From Klebsormidium nitens (taxonomy: Eukaryota; Plantae; Klebsormidiophyceae), in contig DF237677.1 of assembly GCA_000708835.1 (NCBI GenBank), forward strand, positions 1-40,323: a DNA stretch of 40,323 nt, written 5' to 3'. A program made the translations under genes and the position numbers. The notes beneath the pieces are model-generated. The model ran no database searches. It had not been told where the DNA came from and saw nothing but the letters and a program-made list of their open reading frames with translations. Shown here one piece after another: positions 1,740 to 15,212 of this stretch; the stretch's first letter is position 1, and each line of letters opens with the position of its first letter.

Positions 1740-1927
1740 TGTGTCAGTAAGGATTGTAGAACGGCCATGGTACAGGCTTGTATGCGCTCGACTCCCTCCT
1801 GAGCTGGACAGTGACTCAAGTGCTGACTCAGACGTTCGCAGTTCTCACTATGCTTCACACTGCTGCACCGCTTGTCACCAAGCGTCACTTGATTATACAC
1901 GAAGGTGAGCTGTTAATCCGAAACTGA

Positions 1928-2052
1928 CCGTCGATTACCCGCAGGTAGGCCGTCGATCTCGTACGGCCACCCGCGAGCACCTGTTGTTCGCCCAACTTCA
2001 CCCATCGGTACACCGTCGATAACTGTCGATAGCCTAAGGGCTACCGTTCGAT
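1928..2052. promoter_or_regulatory. Cluster of CCGTCGAT-like motifs in a divergent intergenic region
   Basis: CCGTCGAT at 1928, 1950 and 2013, CTGTCGAT at 2023, CCGTTCGAT at 2044; hairpin GGCCGT/ACGGCC at 1948-1968. Lies between minus-strand and plus-strand gene blocks. Confidence 0.4.
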
Positions 2053-2202
2053 TATTTGGTTGCCAGACTCAGGTGGCTTAATAGCAACTACTGTCCCCAC
2101 AGTCCGCCAAAGCAGCCGGAGTGCGCAACAGCAGCCTGACAAAAACGGGAGTGCAAGGCAGGCTCGTTCTCACAAGCACTTAAATCCCATCAGTGAGACA
2201 AC

Positions 2203-3192
2203 ATGGAGCCTGCCCCCGCAGAGCCCATCCTTGCTGCATCCAACGCCAGGTTCACAATGTTCCCAGTCCAGTACCATGAGCTATGGAAACTGTACAAGGA
2301 GGCTGTGGCTAGCTTCTGGACCACAGAGGAGGTGGACCTCAGTGACGACCTTCCCCACTGGGAGAAGCTCACAAGCAAGGAGAGGTTCTTCATCTCACGA
2401 GTGCTGGCATTCTTTGCTGCCAGTGACGGGATTGTCCTGGAGAACCTGGCCCTCAGGTTCTTTGCAGAGGTGCAGATTCCAGAGGCACGGGCATTCTACT
2501 CGATGCAGATGGCGATTGAGACCATCCATTCCGAGCAGTATAGCCTCCTCATCGATGCCTACGTGAAGGACTCTCAGGAGAAGGACGAGATGTTCCGCGC
2601 CATCGACTCCATCGCATGCGTCAAAAGGAAGGCGGACTGGGCAACCAAGTGGATCGAGTGCGGGCGGTCGTTTGGAGAGAGGCTCGTTGCCTTTGCATGC
2701 GTGGAGGGTATCCACTTCTTGGGGTCCTTCTGTGCCATCTTCTGGCTGAAGAAGCGGGGGCTCATGCCTGGCCTTTGTTTTGCCAATGAGCTCATCAGCC
2801 GCGACGAAGGGCTGCACACAGACTTTGCGTGCCAGCTCTACGAGACCCTCCAGGAGAAGCTGCCAGCTCAGACCGTGAGGGACATTGTCACTGATGTTGT
2901 GAAGATTGAGCAGGCTTTCATCAGTGAGGCACTACCCTCTTCATTGATCGGGATCAACGCTGGCCTGATGTCAGAGTACATTGAGTTTGTTGCTGACAGG
3001 CTCTGCCAGCAGTTAGGATACGAGGCAATTTACGGTACCGCCAACCCTTTCGATTTCATGGACCTTCAAAGCCTCGATGGCAAGGCAAACTTCTTTGAGA
3101 GGAAGGTCAGCGCCTATCAGCGGGCAGGGGTCGCCGGTGGACAGAGTTTCGCAGACATGTCAAATATTAGGACATATTATTTGGACTTCTAA
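2203..3192 (+). CDS. RNR2: Ribonucleotide reductase small (beta) subunit
   Basis: Motifs [67 protein letters not shown]; intronless, 329 aa. Confidence 0.97.
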
Positions 3193-4521
3193 AGGTCTAT
3201 GTAACAAGATCAGTAGAATGAAGTCTCATAAGGACAAACGTGGACACAATATATTACTCAATTGGCCTCCTGGAGGGAGCCTGGTGCTCTGTGTGATCCA
3301 TGCGATTGCCCATCATGCCATGCATGTCTGACAGGAGATTATGCAACAATGACGAATGAAGAGAATGTCATCATAGTGGAACGTAAGACATGCTTGATAC
3401 ACACACTTAGGGGAACGCATCTGCTCTTAGAGCACCAACCTACAGATGGATGCTGCTGCTATCACCGTTGCACGGGCCGCCAATCTGGCAACCTACGGGA
3501 ACAACCACAACAAAGAAGCGCAAGGTCTGCGACCGATCTCGCGTGCACTTCAGGAGGACGGCCGTCTCAAGTTCCACAAGTCCTTTGAGAAGGCTCTTGC
3601 TGACTTCTGCGTATATATGCCCGGTTTCCCCGCGCTCGGAGTACAGCTCAAAACCACGGGTGTAAACTGGATACAGAACCGTACAGACTACGAGTACTAC
3701 AGCTTCTCGCAAACTGGTGGATACGCTGGCCTGTTAATGATCTTCGTGGCCCTCCACACGCAGCCCCGCCGCATCTGGCTTGCGGATGGATCCAGGGTGA
3801 CCCGCATGAAGGTTGTGATTCCAGTAACCCTCCGGCGGGCCGTGAGGTGTGACGAAATTCGAGAGATAAAGCTCGCCACCCTGGCAGACGCAATCTACAC
3901 GATCTATATGGCAGCCCTATCAGGCTCTAGCAACTACGTGCTCCGCAGCCCAATGGACCACGAGAAGCCCACGGAACGAAACGCCTTGGCGGAGTACAAT
4001 GCCTTCCAGCGTCTTCAGTGCTCATTACCGGTCCTTTTCATGGACCCTCCAGCCGAGTACCTGAGCTACGATTATATCGTGGATGGCAGAAGGTGGCAGC
4101 TGAAGTTGGCCCGATACAATCGTAAATCTGATTACTACTCCGTGGGCTGCCATAAGCAAGCAGGCAGAGTGAACGGGAAGTGCACACAGAGGCAGTACGA
4201 AGTCGGCGATTTTGATTTCCTCTGCATCCAACTCCCCGAGGCCCCCAAGACCTTGCACTGCTGCTACGTGATCCCGCAGAGCATATTGGCCGATCATGAT
4301 CTCGTCGGCAACGCCACCAAGTCTTCCGGGGCTGTCCTTGTATACCCGGATCGACTGGTGACCGCCAGGAATGCTGTGCACAAACAGGGCGTTCACTGGA
4401 CGGAGACTTATCGCATCGATTTTGCCCGTGACCCGTTGGCACAATTGGCGCGCATTACACAGGGAGCATATCAAAGGGCAGGGGTCAGCAGTCAGAGCTT
4501 CGCAGACATGTCAAACATTAG
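3112..4521 (+). repeat. Direct repeat pair: RNR2 3' end (3112-3170) and endonuclease 3' end (4466-4521)
   Basis: GCCTATCAGCGGGCAGGGGTC...CAGAGTTTCGCAGACATGTCAAATATTAG versus GCATATCAAAGGGCAGGGGTC...CAGAGCTTCGCAGACATGTCAAACATTAG. Confidence 0.92.
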
Positions 4522-4537
4522 CGACGAGGAGTTTTGA
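3446..4537 (+). CDS. Tandem PD-(D/E)xK-type (D...QxK) endonuclease, probable free-standing homing endonuclease; C-terminus copied from RNR2
   Basis: Two nuclease-like motifs, ADFCVYMPGFPALGVQLKT and YDYIVDGRRWQLK. Ends [23 protein letters not shown]. Confidence 0.7.
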   Translation: MDAAAITVARAANLATYGNNHNKEAQGLRPISRALQEDGRLKFHKSFEKALADFCVYMPGFPALGVQLKTTGVNWIQNRTDYEYYSFSQTGGYAGLLMIFVALHTQPRRIWLADGSRVTRMKVVIPVTLRRAVRCDEIREIKLATLADAIYTIYMAALSGSSNYVLRSPMDHEKPTERNALAEYNAFQRLQCSLPVLFMDPPAEYLSYDYIVDGRRWQLKLARYNRKSDYYSVGCHKQAGRVNGKCTQRQYEVGDFDFLCIQLPEAPKTLHCCYVIPQSILADHDLVGNATKSSGAVLVYPDRLVTARNAVHKQGVHWTETYRIDFARDPLAQLARITQGAYQRAGVSSQSFADMSNISDEEF

Positions 4538-4588
4538 GGTGTTGTTAAGAAGAGACAAATTCTTTCCAACATTACAACCATAAGTCAT

Positions 4589-5410
4589 ATGGCAGCTGAG
4601 TTCAAACACGTGCCACTTACCCCAGAGACCAAGAAGCCTGCTCCTCCTCCACCTTACAGCCCGCCTCCTAGCCCTGTGCCCGCCAGAGGCCTCAGATTCT
4701 TCCGTAGGATTCATGAGCAAACGGCTGCTGTCACAGGTGGTGCATGGCAGGCAGTATCTACAGAATTCATTGCAACGTTCATGTTTGTGTACTTGGGTGT
4801 GGGATCAGTAATTGCATGTGGGCTGAGCCCCGACTCTAGGATCCATAGCACATCGGCACTCCTCGCATCGGGCCTTTCAAACGGCCTCGCACTGTCAGTC
4901 GGCACCGCCTTGGGTGCCACCAATGGGGTGGGGCACTGCAACCCATCCTTGACATTTGCCTATGCCGTAACGGGACGGTTGAGCATGCTACGAGCCATGT
5001 ACATGATATTGGCACAATGCGCCGCATCCTTTGGAGCGACCGGGCTTGCAGTAGTAGCATACCCTGTCTCCCTTTCTACCAACCGCCTCCATGCATGGTC
5101 GCTCGAAAGGGCTTTCTTGCTGGAACTGATTGCAGCATGCATCCTCACAATCACATCCATGGGGCTTCGAGCCAAGAAGGGATTGCAAAACCCTGCAGCT
5201 CCTGTTATCATGGGCTTTCTGATGACGGCAAGCATGGTGGCGGTGTCTCCATTTGCTGATGGAACAGTGAATCCCGCACGGAGTCTTGCGGTTGCGGCAT
5301 TCACGGCAGGTTGGAAGGATGCTTGGATCCATGTGATTGCACCACTGAGCGGGTCCATAGTTGGTGCCGTGCTTCACGAACTCATGATTGAAAGTACTGG
5401 TGAACCGTAG
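4589..5410 (+). CDS. Aquaporin / major intrinsic protein (NPS and NPA boxes)
   Basis: TEFIATFMFVYLG, GHCNPSLTF, GTVNPARSL, WIHVIAPLSG; several hydrophobic segments; intronless. Confidence 0.92.
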   Translation: MAAEFKHVPLTPETKKPAPPPPYSPPPSPVPARGLRFFRRIHEQTAAVTGGAWQAVSTEFIATFMFVYLGVGSVIACGLSPDSRIHSTSALLASGLSNGLALSVGTALGATNGVGHCNPSLTFAYAVTGRLSMLRAMYMILAQCAASFGATGLAVVAYPVSLSTNRLHAWSLERAFLLELIAACILTITSMGLRAKKGLQNPAAPVIMGFLMTASMVAVSPFADGTVNPARSLAVAAFTAGWKDAWIHVIAPLSGSIVGAVLHELMIESTGEP

Positions 5411-7254
5411 ACTTTCACTGCCTACTTCCTCAATTTCTTCTCACTTATTGCAGGAGGTTGATGGCCCTGATACAAAAACAGGCTCGCAACAAGAAAGGTT
5501 CTGGAATTCAGAGCGGGAAATCTGACAAACGCGCTGTATTAGAGTTTCAGTACCGGAGAGCTGTGAAGAACAAGGAAAAGTGGGCCAAGGAGAAGCTTCA
5601 AAGTAGGCTGAGCGCAAGAGAGAAACAGAAAAAGAACAAAGAGGTTCAAGATGCAATTAATGCTGGACAGAAGAGGCGGCAGAAACTCAACGAAGAAGAG
5701 GCGGCTACCGTGCGCAGACAGGTTGCACTGGGAGAGAGAGCTGCAATGGGACGGGAGCTCAGCAAGCAAGGGAAGGGGAAGAAGAAGAACAATCCCAACC
5801 AAAACACGGGAACTCAGGACGTGAGCCACATTGAAATGGTTCAAGGACTCAATAGACAAGGCAAGCAGAACAGTCCTGGGCAGTCTGCAAAAGCGCTTGA
5901 ACCGACCGAGACAGCCCGGAACAACCCTCTCTTTGAGAGCAACGTGCATAATGGGCAGCAATCTGCGACCCTCTTGGCACCTCAACAGATGCTTGGAGGA
6001 TCCGTGGTGACCAGTCACGACAATCCACTCTTCAAACCGGGCACCCCAGACGTGAGGAGCAGCTTACGGCTCCTTAAGAGCTCTCAAGGGAAGAGGTCGT
6101 TGAGGCCAGTTGCTACCCTGCCCGACTACCTAGAACCGCAGCCGCCTGCCGCGAGAAAACGACGGGATGAAGCACGGACAATCGACAACGACATCTACAA
6201 CAGTTTACAAGAGATGGATCTAGCAAAGATAGCAGAAAACGAGGAGAGGGAGGTGGTAGAACGTCTCGAGCAACTCCGATTCGCCCGTCCTGCAATCCCG
6301 AAACTTCGACGTCGCCCCTTTTTCTATGAAGTCGGTGCTGCAGTGTCCTCGCCCGACGAGAACGGGTGGGATGATCATGCGGAGGCTAAGCTGATTGAGA
6401 CCGAACTTCCGATGCCCCGCAAGGGTCACCCGCTCACTGATCGCATCTACCTGCGTGAACGGCATCCAAGAGCTAGTGAGAATCTGCCTGCCCCGTACAA
6501 ATCGACGGCCCTGCCTTATCGGCCACGTGCTACAAAGCTGCCAGTTTTTGACACTCGCAACCTACCAGTACCCAGCAGTATTGTGGTGCCCCCGCTGAGG
6601 AAAAGGCGCTCTACGTGGTACGAGGATCTTCCACCTACAAGCAATCTGAACGTCCCTACCTTGCGGACTAGGAGGGCTGGTCATCCTGTTGATATCCTTC
6701 CACCCACAACCATTGATGTTGCCACCACACCCCAAAGAACTCGACATGAATTGCTTGTGAAGGAACTTCCGCCACCTAACTACAACATGACCACTCCGCT
6801 CAGAGAACGTCGTCAAGGACTTGTGAACAATGAACTATTCCCGACACACAACAACCGCTCTCCCGGACCCCCTGACGACCTGCCGTCATTGAGTGGTCCT
6901 TTTGTCACGCCGCTCCGGATACGGCGTGCCGAAGACATGCTCACAGTCGCATCAACTTCCAGTGGCCTCCTACCCCCAATCCAAGCGAGAGAGTTTAAGA
7001 ACCTTCGAGGCAAGAGAGGGCCAGTAAACAATCTGGCCTTCAAGAAGCAGAACAACGCAGGGCCCCAACCGGACATTGGGCCGACAGGTGCATTCCCTCA
7101 GGGACGGATCACAGGAAAGCTGGAAAGGTCGCTTGCATTCAAGAAGCGTAACAATCAGAGGCCTCTCCTGAAACATGGCTCGACCATGGCCAAAAAGCCA
7201 AGCAGCTGGTCTCCGTTTGGGAGCCGAACAAAAGGGTACACGAGGATTGAGACA

Positions 7255-7610
7255 GACTCTGGAGGTGACGGCAGCTCGAAACAGGCGTCCGGCTGGTTCA
7301 AGGGCTGGTCAAAAAGGGGAGGGTACCCGAGTACTCCAAAACTTGATCCCAACAAGCAAGCCCCCAATGGAAGATTTGACAAGTCCCAGCACAAGAGCTC
7401 AAGGGACTCGGGGGGTGACGGGAGCTCGAAACAGGCGTCCGGCTGGTTCAAGGGCTGGTCAAAAAGGGGAGGGTACCCGAGTACTCCAACACTTGATTCC
7501 AACAAGCAAGCCCCCAATGGAAGGTTTGACAAGTCCCAGCACGAGAGCTCAAGGGACTCGGGGGGTGACAGGAGCTCGAAATAGGCGTCCGGCTGGTTCA
7601 AGGGCTGGTC
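7255..7610 (+). repeat. Coding tandem repeat, 150-bp (50-aa) unit, about 2.4 copies
   Basis: Units start at 7255, 7405 and 7555 (DSGGDGSSKQASGWFKGWS...). Confidence 0.95.
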
Positions 7611-7998
7611 CTCCGATCCTTGGGGTCCAAGGCAAGGTTACAGTAGTGACCCCAACAAGCAAGTTGCAGTAGAAAGTGCCCAGAAGCCCAGGCAACAGCA
7701 AGAGACCACGAACATGCAGGGTGCTAACAAGCAGGCCGCGAAAGAACGCTCTGAGAAGGCTCAGAAGCTTAAGAATGATTTGAAACGGGCAGAGAGAGAG
7801 GAAAAAACTTGGTTGCAAAAAGAGAAGGAAGAACGGGGTATCAGACAATTGCAAGAACAGCTGGATAAGAAGATGAGATCCAAGCAGATAAGGAATGGTT
7901 GGGACGGAACTCAGAAGCTCATAGACGAACAGAACAGGAAAGAAAGAGAGAGGCGAGATGCACAGCAAGCGACCACGAGCTTCGGAACCAACCCCGTA

Positions 7999-8238
7999 TT
8001 GCCAGGCAAGCCCATGCTTGCAGCCACACAGCCGGGAAGGCAGAATGGCACTCGCTATCCACAAGAAGCACTGCAAGCAGCTGTTGTGACCGCACCAAGC
8101 ACTGAGCTCAAGTTGCCAGGCAAGCCCGTGCTTGCAGCCACTCAGCTGGGAAGGTCAGAGATGCAGACTGTCACTCGCTATCCACGAGAAGCACTGCAAG
8201 CAGCTGTTGTTAAACCACCTGGCACTGAGCTCGAGCTC
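7999..8238 (+). repeat. Coding tandem repeat, about 114-bp unit, 2 copies
   Basis: TTGCCAGGCAAGCCC at 7999 and 8113; LPGKP.LAATQ.GR...TRYP.EALQAAVV...TEL occurs twice. Confidence 0.9.
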
Positions 8239-8604
8239 GTCAGCCACACAGCACCCACAAGAGGCTCTGGCTGGACAGCATTCTCACCCAATGATAAACG
8301 GTCCCTTTACTATGGCAAGGCAGCAAAACAAGTTGCTCGTAGAAAGGTTCCCACCACGACAATGCACATTCCCATACCACAGTCACCCGCACCAGTTGCT
8401 GCCACCACAATCCTCACAAAGCAGGGAGGTGGTTCTGTGGAAAGACTGCCCCTCTCACTGTCATCCATGAGAGGGTTGCCATGGAGCGACCCAAGATGCA
8501 GGGGAGTGAATCAGTAGCACTGAGAATGCTCATCGAGCGGGAAAAGATGCACATTTCTCAAAAGCGTGCGGCAATTGTTGCACTTGATAGATTGCTTTCA
8601 AGGC

Positions 8605-8781: not shown

Positions 8782-9149
8782 AGAATAGCAAAATTGTTGG
8801 ACGGACAATTTGGGGATTCCGCATGTCTTTCTTATTGGACCACCGACAATGTTTGGTAGCGGCGGTCAGCCAGGTGATGGGTCTGCAAACATTTGTCGAA
8901 CCTGTGTATGAAATGACACGTAAAACCTTTACTCCTGTGCGCTTCTTCTCTACAACATCCCCAAATTGTGTCAGATAGGGTTTATGGTCCCAATGAGTGC
9001 CCACTGTGCTAGCCGCGGCGCCGCACAAGTGCGAGGGTGGCCTTTTCGAGCCCGGTTCTGAGTCAGTTAGGGTTCGGAGGTACCGGTACGAGCATCGAGG
9101 GGGGTCAGTGGGTCCCTACAGCGGCCTACAATGTTTCATTTTTGTGGGG

Positions 9150-9430
9150 GTATGGCCTTACATACATACATATTGGCCTTTGGATTCCACCAGAGAAACT
9201 CTGTACTACTAATCTGTTATATTCTCTCCTCCGAAAAGTAGATTATAATATTGTATCTTTTTGAGGGTATGGCCTTACATACATACATATCACCAATTGG
9301 AAAGCAAAGGGGGAACTCTGTACTACTAATCCGTAATAATTCCTTCCCTGGAGAAGAAAGAAAAAATAACAGATTGTAGTACAAGAGTCCTGGGTTCCCC
9401 CGCTGCTTGCCAATATGTATGTATGCAAGG
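9150..9430. repeat. AT-rich module upstream of topo II: two direct copies (117-bp period) plus one inverted copy
   Basis: GTATGGCCTTACATACATACATAT exact at 9150 and 9267; AACTCTGTACTACTAATC exact at 9197 and 9314; inverted near-copies at 9368-9388 and 9410-9430. Confidence 0.9.
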
Positions 9431-11258
9431 TCCCTTGGAAGAAAAACAAAGAGTTTTGGTATGGGGATTGAAGCCCTCAAATCCGCCCTTTGTATGACTT
9501 TCAAGCTGGCGCCGCCGGGCGTGGGTAGGCAGACCATGGCACACTCAAGCCACAGGCTGCCAATCTGCACTCATCCAGGGCCAACTTTCCTTCCTCCATA
9601 TTGCTTTCATTGTGGCCTGCAGCTCAGAATGTTCCTCTCTGTTCAACATGGCCTCCACTGCTCAGATCTCAGCAACTTACAGGCGCTGCACGCCCATCGA
9701 GCACATCCGAACTCGACCAGACTCCTATGTAGGCTCCGTTGTCCCAGAGCAGACCAGGACCTGGGTCATCGAGGAAGGGCGTGCCAAGGAGAAGGAGATC
9801 ACTGTCGTCCCTGGCCTCTACAAGATTGTGGATGAGATCCTGGTCAACGCAATCGACCAGACAAAGGTGGACCCGACCGTCGACTCCATCAAGGTCGAGG
9901 TTGATGTGGAGGCAGGGCTCATCAGCGTGACCAACAGCGGGCGAGGCATCCCTGTTGTTGAGCACGACTCTTACAATATGTACATACCTTAGCTGATCTT
10001 TGGCAACCTCCTGACCTCCTCAAACTATGATGACTCAGAGTAGCGGACAACCGGCGGGCGCAATGGGTACGGGGCCAAGCTGACCAACGTCTTCAGTCAG
10101 TCCTTTGCTGTTGAGACCCTGGACATAGAGAGAGGCATCAAGTATTGCCAGGTCTGGGAGGACGGGATGTCCAAGTGCAAGCCGCCAAAGATCTCCCGCC
10201 CCAAGAACCCCAAGCACGGCTACTGCAGGATCTCCTTCAAGCCCGACCTAGCTGTCTTCTCCATGGAACGCCTGAACGACGAGTTTGTCAGCCTCCTTCA
10301 CCGGAGGGCCCACGACGCCGCAGCCTGCACGCGGCCGAGCGTGAGGGTGTCTTTCAACGGCAAGAACCTCCCGTCCAAGGGTGGATTTGAGAGCTACTGT
10401 GAGCTGTTTATCGGCCCCAAGAAGGAGGCGCCGCGCGTGTTCTTCCGCCCAAACGAGCGCTGGGAGGTTTGTGTGGCTGCTTCCGCGGACGGCTTCCAAG
10501 CCATCTCGTTCGTCAACGGGGTGCACACGGCTCTGGGCGGCACCCATGTGGAGCACGTGGTTGCGCCGCTCACCCGGAGGGTTGCCGAGACGCTGCAGGG
10601 CAAGGTGAAGGGGGCTACTATCCGGCCAGCACATGTCAGGGAGAAGCTGATGCTGTTTGTGAATGCGACGCTGGTCAACCCCACCTTCAGCTCTCAGACA
10701 AAGGAGATGTGCACACTGAAGGTGAGCCTTTTTGGGAACACGTGCGACGTGCCTGACGAGGTGGTTGGCAAGGTGGTGAGCAAGCTAGGGATTGCTGAGG
10801 CGATCGTCGCAAAGGCGAGGGAGCGAGAGGCCAAGACCCTGTCACGAACGGACGGGAACAAGACGGGCGTCATCAGAGGGATCCCAAAGCTGGAGGATGC
10901 CAACAAAGCAGGTGGCAGGCGGAGCTCCGAATGCACGCTCCTGGTGGTAGAAGGGGACAGCGCGCGTGCTTTCGCCATGGCAGGGCTCTCGGTGGTTGGC
11001 AGGGATCTGTATGGGGTCTTTGCCCTGCGGGGGAAGATTCTCAACTGCAGGGACGCCCCAATCAAGGCCATCGCTGAGAACAAGGAGATTGCCAACCTCA
11101 AGCAGATCCTGGGCCTCCGAGAGGGCCACAAGTACAAGTCGCTCTCCGAGCTGCGCTACGGACGAGTCATGCTCCTCACGGATGCTGACTGCGATGGCAC
11201 GCACATCCGGGCGCGCTTCCTCAACTTTGTTGAGTTTGGCTGGCCGGAACTCATCGAG

Positions 11259-11391
11259 GTGAGCCACACATCCAGTGAGGGCTCTCTGACAATGGTATGC
11301 TGGATTTCCGCAGTCTTGTATCTGCTCGTGCCTTTGTCTGCCGCCGTCCCTGCCTCCTTCTCCATTCAAAAGTACAACGATTCTTTTGCAG
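11259..11391 (+). other. top2 intron 1 (133 nt, GT-AG, phase 0)
   Basis: GAG/GTGAGC ... TTCTTTTGCAG/CTG joins WPELIE to LGFAWH. Confidence 0.88.
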
Positions 11392-11521
11392 CTGGGGTTT
11401 GCGTGGCACCTGAGGACCCACGTGGTCAAGGCGTTCAAGAACAGCCAGACGCGTGCGTTCTTCACGGAGCGACAGTACAGGGAGTGGGCACAGACGAGCG
11501 AGGCCCGTGGTACCTGGCGCA

Positions 11522-11992
11522 TCAAGTTCCTGAAAGGTGTGGGCTCCCAGGGACTCGGTACCTCCCGGGGCCAGTCAACCCCTCCCTTTCGTCTTGGACC
11601 GGCTGGAAACCATAGCGCATGTAGAGGGCCTGTAGCCTGCTCAAGAGTGCGTCTTCGCCTGTAGGCTGCTCTTCGGCCAAAGGATAGCAGAAAAGCTGCA
11701 CTTCACTGATACCGAGGGAGTACATGTGCGCGAGTGCGGTGTTCAGCAGCAGAAACGAGAGTCCCAAACCCCGGAACGGTCTGGCGACACCCATAAGGCT
11801 TATGTATGCACTTGTCTCAAAGAGCTGATAGTTGAGGTATGCAATCTTTTGAGGAATGGCTCTGATTGCTGCGCCTGTGGTGAGCAATTCGATGGTCCCA
11901 GCAGCAAAATCATGGCGAGTCCTGACCTTCTGTTGGCTCAAATCTGAAACCGGCACCTGGACAAGCGGCTCTAGGCGGGCCACCATTGCCAT
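11522..11992 (-). CDS. GNAT-family N-acetyltransferase nested antisense in top2 intron 2
   Basis: YISLMGVARPFRGLGLSFLLLNTAL (acetyl-CoA motif A), GISEVQL and LYMRYGF. ATG at 11992 or 11986; the stop overlaps top2 exon 2 by 15 nt. Confidence 0.85.
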   Translation of the reverse strand: MAMVARLEPLVQVPVSDLSQQKVRTRHDFAAGTIELLTTGAAIRAIPQKIAYLNYQLFETSAYISLMGVARPFRGLGLSFLLLNTALAHMYSLGISEVQLFCYPLAEEQPTGEDALLSRLQALYMRYGFQPVQDEREGLTGPGRYRVPGSPHLSGT

Positions 11993-12045
11993 ATCTCTTG
12001 ACCCTCTACCCAAAGAGCACTGTCCTAAGCCCATGGGCGATGCAG
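11537..12045 (+). other. top2 intron 2 (509 nt, GT-AG, phase 1), containing an antisense GNAT gene
   Basis: AAAG/GTGTGG ... GATGCAG/GTCTGGGC restores IKFLKGLGTSTAKDAK. Confidence 0.82.
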
Positions 12046-12471
12046 GTCTGGGCACGTCCACTGCCAAGGATGCCAAGGATATCTTCAGCAACATGAGCAA
12101 GGTCACGTACACGACCGACCCCGGGGCGGCAGCGGCCATGCAGCTGGCCTTCCAGAAGGCAAGGGCAAACGACAGGAAGAGGTGGATTGTTGAGGCGATC
12201 GCAAAACCAGCGCCGGAGCCAGTGGGAGAGCGGGTGACCCTCTCGGAGATGGTGGACACCGAGCTGGTCAACTACTCCATCGCCAATGTCCGGCGCTCCA
12301 TCCCCAGTGCAATCGACGGTCTGAAGCCCTCGACGAGGAAAATTGTCCACGTCAGCATCAAGAGAAACGTTCGGGAGGAGTTCAAGGTGGCCCAGCTAGC
12401 CGCAGCGGTCGCAGAGGGGAGTGCATACCATCACGGTGAGAAGCGAACCTCTTGCGCAGATGGAGCGCATG

Positions 12472-13222
12472 AGCAAGTGATTTCAACCCCCCTCCTATAG
12501 TCAAAAAAGGGGGGTCCCAAATTCTCAAACACTTTTCAAAATTAGTCTCCATCCGTGTTTATGCGTGAGCTTGCCGTGACCTACAAACCTATGCTTTCTT
12601 ACCGGAATGGTTATAGTGTGCTGGGAACTACCAAGTCTTAGGTCTTAGCTCTTCCTTCAGGGATGGCTTCAACACGCGTGCGCGCATAAGCAAGTCATTT
12701 CAACCCCCCTCCTATAGTCAAAAAAGGGGGGTCCCAAATTCTCAAACACTTTTCAAAATTAGTCTCCATCCGTGTTTATGCGTGAGCTTGCCGTGACCTA
12801 CAAACCTATGCTTTCTTACCGGAATGGTTATAGTGTGCTGTGAACTACCAAGTTTTAAGTCTTAGCTCTTCCTTCAGGGATGGCTTCAACACGCGTGCGC
12901 GCACAAGCAAGTGATTTCAACCCCCCTCCTATAGTCAAAAAAGGGGTCTCCCAAATTTCAAACACTTTTGAAAATTGCGCTCCATCCGTGTTTGTGCGTG
13001 AGCTTTCCGTACACTACAGACATTTAATTTCTTACTGGAATGGCTATGGAACGCTGTGAACCGTAAGTTTTTGGTGCAGGGATGGCTTAAACACACGTGC
13101 GCGCATAAGCAAGTGATTTCAACCCCCCTCCTATAGTCAAAAAAGGGGTCTCTCAAATTCTCAAACACTTTTGAAAATTGCGCTCCATCCGTGTTATGCG
13201 AAAAGGTTGGCCGTTGACTACA
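12472..13222. repeat. Non-coding tandem array, units of 217, 217, 202 and about 115 bp
   Basis: AGCAAGT(G/C)ATTTCAACCCCCCTCCTATAGTCAAAAAAGGGG starts at 12472, 12689, 12906 and 13108. Copies 1-2 have an ACCCCCCT/AGGGGGGT stem. Confidence 0.95.
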
Positions 13223-13223
13223 A

Positions 13224-13745
13224 TCAGACAACCCTTCGGAAATTGGAAGTGTTGAGGGTCTGACGGGTGAACGGGTTTCTCGCACCCTCGTGCAACCTTT
13301 GTAATGCGTCTTTGTGATACGCCCTCGGAGCCTTTCCACCCCTCAACTCGCTTTCAAGGTAGATGTAGTTCCTCCGGTTTGCGGGGCGCTTGTTCAAGGC
13401 CATGAAGTTTGTGTTGATGAAGTCCGTATCATTCGAGACGGCGCCTGCTCGACCGTTCCGCACACTAGCCATGTTAAGGCGCCTATGACAAGGAGCAACC
13501 TCCATAGTTGCAGGAGTCTCGTAACCGACGACACTGCGAGGCCCTTCGGAATGCAACGCCCAGACAACGAGGTCGCTCAATGACCACTCATCGTGCATAG
13601 GAGGCTCACCTGACTCCACGTAAACGACTTCAAAGAGCTCTGGTGCTACCAACCGAGCGGACGTGGTGGCACCGTTCTCATGCTGCAGCTGGATGACGTC
13701 TCCAACGTCCATATAACGCAAGGTCTCCCAGATCTCCCTCTCCAT
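13224..13745 (-). CDS. Hypothetical viral protein nested antisense in top2 intron 3; C-terminal D-F-I...Y...L...NPFTRQ motif
   Basis: Intact 173-aa ATG ORF. The C-terminus (NDTDFINTNF...YIYL...YHKDALQRL...RNPFTRQTLN) resembles short U-box-like tails seen in algal-virus proteins (recalled, not searched). Confidence 0.72.
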   Translation of the reverse strand: MEREIWETLRYMDVGDVIQLQHENGATTSARLVAPELFEVVYVESGEPPMHDEWSLSDLVVWALHSEGPRSVVGYETPATMEVAPCHRRLNMASVRNGRAGAVSNDTDFINTNFMALNKRPANRRNYIYLESELRGGKAPRAYHKDALQRLHEGARNPFTRQTLNTSNFRRVV

Positions 13746-13904
13746 TCAGCATAACACAGAACCAGAATTTACTTTTTGTTGCAGGTGAGGAGAGCCTGAG
13801 CGGCGCCATCATCAACCTTGCGCAGACGTTTGTGGGATCCAACAACCTCAACCTGCTCGAACCGGTCGGAATGTTTGGAACACGCCTGGCCAACGGGAAG
13901 GACA

Positions 13905-14184
13905 GTGAGTGCACTGCGTTTGAGCCGTGTTCAAAACCTACGTGCCAATGAAGGACAGCATGTCAGCCAAGTCACTGGTGGGAGCCCCTCACTACGCCAC
14001 CCTGGCATCATGTTACAGGCCTGTGGTGGCAACCAAAGCGCTCGGCATGCAAGATGCCGCGTGTCTTGCAGCTCATGGCGCAGCCCTCTCTGCATGCTGG
14101 TACATTGCCAATGACTATCTCGAACGTCAAAAGCTGAAGGAGAAGCGCAGGCAGCTCCTTAAGAAGCAACTTGGGCGACCGCAG
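13905..14184 (+). other. top2 intron 4 (280 nt, GT-AG, phase 1)
   Basis: GACA/GTGAGT ... CCGCAG/GTGCC restores NGKDSAAPRYLFT, five codons before the catalytic Tyr. Confidence 0.88.
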
Positions 14185-14217
14185 GTGCCGCGCCGAGATA
14201 CCTCTTCACGCACCTGA
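13948..14217 (+). CDS. Possible small protein nested in top2 intron 4 (hydrophobic segment plus basic coiled tail)
   Basis: 89-aa ATG ORF spanning most of the intron, with coding-like codons (YLERQKLKEKRRQLLKKQL); runs 33 nt into exon 5 in another frame. Confidence 0.4.
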   Translation: MKDSMSAKSLVGAPHYATLASCYRPVVATKALGMQDAACLAAHGAALSACWYIANDYLERQKLKEKRRQLLKKQLGRPQVPRRDTSSRT

Positions 14218-15212
14218 CAAAGGCTGCGCTCTGCGCCTTCCATCCTGCCGACGCCCCCCTCCTGACCTACCTCGAAGAGAACGGCAAGGCCATAGAGCCG
14301 GCCTACTTTGTCCCGACCGTGCCCTTGATCCTCCTGAACGGTGCCTCCGGCATTGGCACTGGCTTCTCCACGTACGTCCCCAACCACGCTCTGGAGGACG
14401 TCATCGCCAACATCCGGGCTATGCTGCAAGGCCTGGACCCGGTCGAGATGCACCCTTCCTGGGCTGGCTTCAAGGGGACCGTCCGGGCGACCGAGAAGGG
14501 AGAGTACGTCGTCTCCGGGGTGTACGAGAGGATCGACAGCAGCCGCATCCGCATCACTGAGCTGCCAGTTGGGACGTCAATCGACGCCTACAAGGCTTTC
14601 CTGGAGAGCGACAAGCTTGGGGCCCGTTCCATCAAAAACGACTGCACGGACGCGGTTGTTGACTTCACCGTGGAGTTCAGCACCGGGAGGCTCGAGGCCA
14701 TCCTGCCTGACATCGAGAGGGAGCTCTGCCTCACCAGGAAGCTGAGCACCAACAACATGCACCTGTTCGACTCGAACGGCCACATCAGGCGCTTCGAGAC
14801 CGTGACCGACATCCTGCGGGAGTTCTTCGGGGTGCGGCTGAGCCTCTACGAACGCCGCCTGCTGCACCTGATCCGACAAAAGGAAGAGGAGCTGGCTGCC
14901 TGCTCCTACCGGGCGCTCTTTGTGACGAGTGTGCTTGATGGGGGTGTCCGACTCCTGAAAGCCAAGGTGGCGGACGTCCGTGCCGACATGAGCGCGGCAG
15001 GGATCCCCGAGACCTACCATCAGCGGTTCATGTCGCTCCCCCTGTCAAGCCTGACGGCGGACGAGGTGGAGAGGCTCTTGGCAGCCAAAGAGGCCCTGGT
15101 GTCAGCCCTTGACCTCCTCAAGGGCAAGACGGCCCCGGCTCTGTGGGAGGAGGACCTGCTTGAGTTGGAGAGAGCGCGGAAAATTGGAGCATAGATAGCC
15201 TGGTTGCTTGGT

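Follow-up and report, generated by a model that had tools for sequence, protein, structure and literature searches.

The RNR2 Locus and its Repeated 3′ End

The window analyzed in this work is the whole 40,323 nucleotide (nt) stretch of contig DF237677.1 from Klebsormidium nitens. Its forward strand contains an RNR2 open reading frame (ORF; positions 2203–3192) encoding the class Ia beta subunit of ribonucleotide reductase (RNR), a protein of 329 amino acids (aa) that matches PF00268 (E = 1.5e-106) and ends at its own stop codon. This gene is followed by an A-rich spacer of 253 nt (3193–3445, +), in which no RNA fold more stable than those of shuffled sequences was found (z = 0.40) and which carries a CAG immediately before the ATG of a nuclease ORF of 363 aa located on the same strand (3446–4537, +). 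The next gene (4589–5410, +), which begins 51 nt past the end of the nuclease ORF, codes for an aquaporin (MIP; PF00230, E = 5e-31) and is the predicted right-hand neighbor of RNR2 in an allele free of the nuclease element.

The 3′ end of RNR2 is present twice at this locus. Nucleotides 3112–3171 (60 nt) are imperfectly repeated at 4466–4522 (57 nt) with 82–84% identity, and the differences between the copies consist of one 3 nt indel and 9–10 substitutions over 57 nt. The local alignment score of this repeat is 73, compared with 27 for the remaining window, while 60 shuffles gave values up to 36, and its 20 nt core has exactly two occurrences where 0.00 are expected. Each copy shares the frame of its own ORF (viz. 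RNR2 and the nuclease) and both ORFs finish in Phe, in agreement with the original prediction that an RNR2 C-terminal repeat closes the two genes. The repeat of about 57 nt described in that prediction is indeed present twice, but its copies are not identical and the first contains one extra codon. Tail copy 1 (3112–3192, +) completes RNR2 and is likely a replacement 3′ end brought in by the element; tail copy 2 (4466–4537, +), which makes up the last 23 aa of the nuclease ORF, would then likely be the displaced native 3′ end of RNR2.

Elsewhere in the window are a top2 gene that is split into pieces and coding regions for an mRNA cap methyltransferase domain, an expansin-like protein, a kinase, and a RING protein. 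The seven closest relatives of its RNR2 are 71–81% identical to it, and giant-virus MAG records are among the viral contigs with the best RNR2 relatives; giant-virus endogenisations have been reported in K. nitens (PMC11244446). Residue 173 of RNR2, which is Ser in all seven relatives, is Leu in the window, and the top2 gene (9600–15194), which contains several GT-AG introns, has in-frame TAG codons at 9990 and 10041. The window is probably a decaying segment of an endogenous giant virus. G-to-T changes, and not deamination, could account for both of these stops and for the Tyr-Tyr of RNR2 tail copy 1 (3175–3180). One top2 intron contains about 3.5 copies of a 217 nt repeat (12430–13195) and an opposite-strand ORF of 173 aa (13224–13745) that has no Pfam match. 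An echo of target duplication had also been proposed for top2, where we find no DNA repeat and, at a GT-AG intron, only a weak resemblance to GLGTS. Upstream of top2 (9127–9430), two 95 nt direct repeats and a 22 nt inverted repeat represent possible origin-like or promoter elements. A 150 nt coding tandem repeat (7255–7610) closes an ORF of 708 aa, and a TAG in the third unit of this repeat (7582–7584) may split one long gene (5458–8517).

Comparison of the Two Tails

The tails of the seven close RNR2 relatives, which were compared as proteins, are each 25 residues long. Tail copy 1 is 26 residues long, contains an extra linker codon and ends in RTYYLDF, with Tyr-Tyr near the end where most RNR2 relatives have Asp-Asp or Asp-Glu. 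Tail copy 2 has the linker length found in all seven relatives, but it lacks two residues near the end. Against the tails of all seven relatives copy 1 outscores copy 2, a result compatible with later decay of copy 2 as well as with a native copy 1. The linker length favors copy 2 as the native tail and the overall score favors copy 1.

The two copies differ by five synonymous and three non-synonymous codons, and the latter are found only in the linker and in the final codon that the copies share. At least five silent codons would arise under random substitution with P = 0.004–0.02, in a test based on 9–10 substitutions. The mostly silent nature of these differences suggests that the tails derive from two once-functional alleles, and the pattern appears to fit a donor-recipient hybrid better than a recent duplication followed by drift. 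In sequencing run X9, one contig does not contain the extra 3 nt at 3133, so that a third version of the tail, with the common spacing, exists. We encountered no element-free allele in which RNR2 directly adjoins the aquaporin gene, and a joint in which the element is skipped was not found in the contigs of four runs, none of which spans the region. The differences between run X9 and the window over 1900–5600 are, with few exceptions, of the types C-to-T (91 places) and G-to-A (92 places), as expected of a bisulfite-type library or of methylation-driven decay.

The Nuclease and its Family

The first 340 aa of the nuclease ORF (3446–4465, +) form a core that is predicted, from its fold and motifs, to consist of two PD-(D/E)xK domains in one chain. 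The AF2 model of the nuclease (28-sequence alignment) has a pLDDT of 86 and a pTM of 0.78; its domains span residues 3–163 and 174–326, and residues 348–363 are disordered (pLDDT < 50). The top PDB match of this model is I-Ssp6803I (Foldseek E = 1.9e-7), to which the C-terminal domain aligns over 141 residues (VIA Z = 13.6, rmsd 2.9, model range 176–351), while the N-terminal domain (about 3–163) matches PD-(D/E)xK folds of the Hjc/RecU type (Z about 8). The nuclease fold expected in the original prediction is thus recovered in the predicted model, which would place the ORF in the PD-(D/E)xK superfamily as an I-Ssp6803I-like member with a restriction-like alpha/beta core.

Each domain contains an E…D…QxK pattern, and on the basis of this motif the residues E24/D53/Q67/K69 and E183/D209/Q218/K220 are predicted to be catalytic. 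D53, Q67, K69, Q218, and K220 are kept in all 56 full-length family members, and E183, D209, and E24 are found in 55, 54, and 52 of them, respectively. BLASTP detected no sequence similarity between the two halves of the nuclease, and a tandem two-domain arrangement is suggested by the combination of fold and motif. I-Ssp6803I (PDB 2OST), a cyanobacterial intron homing endonuclease and the closest solved fold to the window nuclease, is a single domain of 148 residues that forms a tetramer recognizing 23 bp (PMC3384342), whereas the window nuclease is predicted to combine two domains in a single chain, an arrangement that would be suited to an asymmetric target within a coding sequence. I-Ssp6803I is also intron-borne, whereas around the window ORF we detected no self-splicing intron of group I or II at the Rfam thresholds, at which divergent introns can be missed (one 37 nt match inside the ORF, 21.7 bits compared with a cut-off of 53).

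A profile search with the nuclease identified 797 proteins at E values of 0.001 or better, and full-length structural relatives in BFVD occur in Hyperionvirus, Klosneuvirus, and an Aureococcus virus (E about 1e-16). Pfam PDDEXK_5 scores under its cut-off for the window nuclease (E = 0.007) and over it for several relatives, and a search of the ESM Atlas returned only matches under 0.9. Some distant members of the family carry NUMOD1 or AP2 domains, which are typical of homing endonucleases. The proteins P0016, P0017, P0018, P0021, P0036, and P0071 have in common an N-terminal extension of 20–30 residues, with no Pfam match in the four tested, which could be a genuine leader or could belong to a different host gene. 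A second family nuclease labeled as K. nitens (P0022, GAQ90392.1; 62% identity) is located on a 51.6 kb contig and has an aberrant C-terminus.

Where Nuclease Homology Ends and Loci of the Family

The similarity of 27 homologs to the window nuclease stops at the RITQG junction, i.e., where tail copy 2 begins. The protein ends were compared in 19 homologs that show at least 51% identity and have an intact last helix, leaving aside the cluster mates P0034–36, four proteins that are truncated or aberrant (P0019, P0021, P0022, and P0023), and the distant P0024–27. Eight of these 19 homologs stop no more than one residue from G340, 10 carry 5–14 unrelated residues, and one (P0006) runs into an RNR2-like tail without the conserved Tyr and several other residues. 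When 176 proteins (175 family members and the window nuclease) were scored for an RNR2-like tail, only the window nuclease and P0006 scored as having one (78 and 66), the next value being 37. The P0006 nuclease is 65% identical to that of the window and its fusion point is the same; the two proteins were grouped in 0 of 200 bootstrap trees, and the well-supported branches are compatible with one origin. Another family nuclease (P0004) ends at the junction, and an RNR2 that is 80% identical to that of the window (P0183) comes from a JGI record that is like the record of P0004 in its contig count and in its longest contig (41,192 nt). This match of the records hints at linkage between nuclease and RNR2 without a tail fusion.

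One locus of the nuclease family was identified in the JGI metagenomes (L001, 1–2024; 35% identity to the window nuclease), and no confirmed loci were found in IMG/VR or in the GTDB genomes. In L001, the only family member besides that of the window whose DNA context is known, the nuclease homolog is arranged head to head with a neighboring ORF, which we take to be a probable NCLDV major capsid protein, with 116 nt between the two. This neighbor and the BFVD relatives agree with a viral setting of the element. The L001 locus does not adjoin RNR and has no long repeat, indicating that the nuclease family as a whole is not specific for RNR2. A degenerate pattern of the shared tail gave no matches in IMG/VR. 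The 103 distinct IMG/VR RNR2 loci that were inspected (55–65% identity; 93 of them extending 1.5 kb or more downstream; 2 of the 103 mis-anchored) contain no second copy of the tail and no member of this nuclease family, and such duplications are therefore not a common background at viral RNR2 genes.

The observed layout could also have been produced without homing, if a local duplication or illegitimate recombination had copied the RNR2 end to a position behind a resident nuclease gene unrelated to it (e.g., a restriction-like or resolvase-like viral gene). The matches of the nuclease fold to MepB, Hjc, and restriction enzymes, the location of L001, the only other family locus seen, away from RNR, and the decayed appearance of the region, as judged from the in-frame TAG codons of top2, agree with such an origin. 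However, a chance duplication is weakened by the recurrence of the junction in P0006, with a nuclease diverged by 35%, and by the 103 viral RNR2 loci without a second tail, and the mostly silent differences between the tails are unlike random decay. We thus consider an origin of this kind improbable.

The distribution of the tail is also relevant to a suggestion in the original prediction, viz. that the tail fused to the nuclease might bind RNR alpha. R2 binds R1 through its last seven residues, and RNR is inhibited by a heptapeptide mimic (PMC2900304), so that docking has a sound basis. In this scenario the nuclease tail would be kept on purpose, as a working RNR-beta peptide that tethers the nuclease to RNR alpha or inhibits a host or rival RNR; the fact that the window nuclease and P0006 both continue into a tail with a final Phe, and the acidic character of copy 2 with its mostly silent differences from copy 1, are in keeping with it. 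The tail is, however, missing in 26 of the 27 homologs and is decayed in the remaining one, the two nucleases that carry it are not sisters, and in copy 2 of the window two residues are missing within the heptapeptide region that binds R1. It is therefore very unlikely that the tail serves in docking, and we attach a similarly small chance to the broader proposal of a giant-virus homing element whose double PD-(D/E)xK nuclease with an RNR-beta tail, or whose spliced RNR2-nuclease fusion, docks on RNR alpha as a decoy or tether. If true, such an element would be a selfish nuclease doubling as an RNR-binding decoy against the nucleotide supply of the host or of a co-infecting virus.

Splicing, Introns, and the Public Gene Model

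The nuclease ORF could alternatively lie in a spliceosomal homing intron or be expressed by splicing, with a donor at 3106 and an acceptor at 4462 (joining RNR2 to tail copy 2) or at 3445 (producing an RNR2-nuclease fusion). Splicing is plausible here because top2 of the same window has GT-AG introns and because mirusviruses have spliceosomal introns with PD-(D/E)xK nucleases (15 of 334; PMC12768974). Usable sites are also present, as AAG/GTCAGC occurs at 3106 and CAG precedes both 3446 and 4463, and several homologs have Gln or Glu directly before their start residue, which, at the protein level, would be compatible with an AG. The splice from 3105 to 4463 put forward in the original prediction is possible with regard to its sites, a GT being located at 3106 and a CAG at 4460–4462, but the product has an altered spacing of the conserved Tyr, which lies five residues past the NFFE glutamate, compared with six in the window RNR2 and its seven closest relatives.

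RNR2 is complete without splicing. There are 18 in-frame donor/acceptor pairs; in the product of the best-looking one, Glu and Tyr are one residue closer together, and the remaining pairs have weaker donors or produce a distorted tail. The acceptor at 4462 does not have the pyrimidine run that is found at two of the four top2 acceptors examined, and in the product of the acceptor at 3445 the catalytic tyrosine is 340 residues away from the beta core. Taken together, we regard an intron or spliced expression as doubtful. Boundaries of the mirusvirus shintron type, whose removal would restore an intact RNR2, were not found, since none of the 18 in-frame pairs combines a good donor with the tail of the relatives. 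An intein was rejected: the two nuclease domains fill residues 3–163 and 174–326, a Gly follows the junction Gln, and a stop codon and the 253 nt spacer precede the nuclease ORF.

The public gene model for this locus (P0182, GAQ91103.1), which is labeled “Ribonucleotide reductase [Klebsormidium nitens],” implies a predicted GT-AG intron at 3106–3445 (+). This protein of 664 aa consists of RNR2 residues 1–301 and the whole nuclease ORF, and it is 100% identical to the window nuclease over the latter. It was also the one protein recovered when longer relatives of the nuclease were sought. P0182 is likely a chimeric gene model in which the nuclease is hidden under the name of RNR.

Proposed Origin by Replacement of the RNR2 3′ End

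We propose, with a probability of roughly two in three, that the element is a free-standing homing endonuclease gene that replaces the 3′ end of RNR2. The predicted nuclease would cleave RNR2 alleles that are free of the element in the vicinity of codon 303, within about the last 25 codons, and repair of the break would copy the tail, spacer, and nuclease of the donor into the recipient. The incoming tail (copy 1) would complete the recipient RNR2, which remains intact without splicing, and the old tail (copy 2) would be shifted behind the nuclease. The silent differences between the tails may help to shield the occupied allele from being cut again. Insertion at the 3′ end of RNR2 with replacement or duplication of the tail, as envisaged in the original prediction, agrees with this proposal, for which we rely on the layout and on precedent.

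The natural end of the nuclease is at the junction, and the old tail would hence be read in frame only if no stop codon intervenes. The in-frame tail on the nuclease is accordingly likely to be a by-product of the insertion and not a docking device.

Relationship to Known Systems and Significance

The closest precedents are the gene hybrids formed by mobile ORFs (mORFs), in which a 3′ end of the host gene is found on both sides of an endonuclease ORF and the first copy is in the host frame. These are known for atp6 of Allomyces macrogynus and for atp6, atp9, cox2, and nad3 of Glomus sp., where the endonuclease was shown to drive mobility (PMC3630166), and gene hybrids are also described in Phlebia (atp6/cox2) and Ophiostoma (rps3; as described in PMC4019555). 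The fungal mORFs have the same order of gene core, inserted in-frame C-terminus, endonuclease ORF, and displaced native C-terminus, and likewise have two ends that are diverged as DNA and similar as protein. They differ in that they reside in mitochondrial DNA and encode LAGLIDADG or GIY-YIG nucleases, whereas the element in the window belongs to a probable giant virus and has a tandem PD-(D/E)xK nuclease. In the window the displaced tail is, in addition, read in frame at the C-terminus of the nuclease, and it is from the layout that we infer mobility and the direction of replacement.

A nuclease gene adjoining an RNR gene is also known from the T4-like phages, in which the free-standing mobE targets nrdB (PMC2988022). 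The T4 genes, however, encode HNH or GIY-YIG enzymes, are intergenic and cut far from their insertion site, and no duplicated gene end is described in the available text of that account. The mirusvirus shintrons (PMC12768974) share with the window a nuclease ORF, nearby GT/AG sites and a virus-like region with spliceosomal introns, but RNR2 of the window needs no splicing and the end of its target is duplicated, not split. In the accessible literature on homing endonucleases, we did not find this layout described for a giant virus or for a PD-(D/E)xK enzyme, nor two I-Ssp6803I-like domains in one chain described in this role. The layout itself is not new, being that of the fungal mitochondrial hybrids, and the type of nuclease and the probable viral host appear to be new to it.

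These results have several implications. The public 664 aa “ribonucleotide reductase” is flagged as a likely chimeric gene model. The duplicated 60 nt predict the position of the target, which makes the family of 797 matches testable as monomeric endonucleases with long sites. If our proposal is correct, the gene-hybrid homing strategy of fungi would extend to a probable giant virus of algae.
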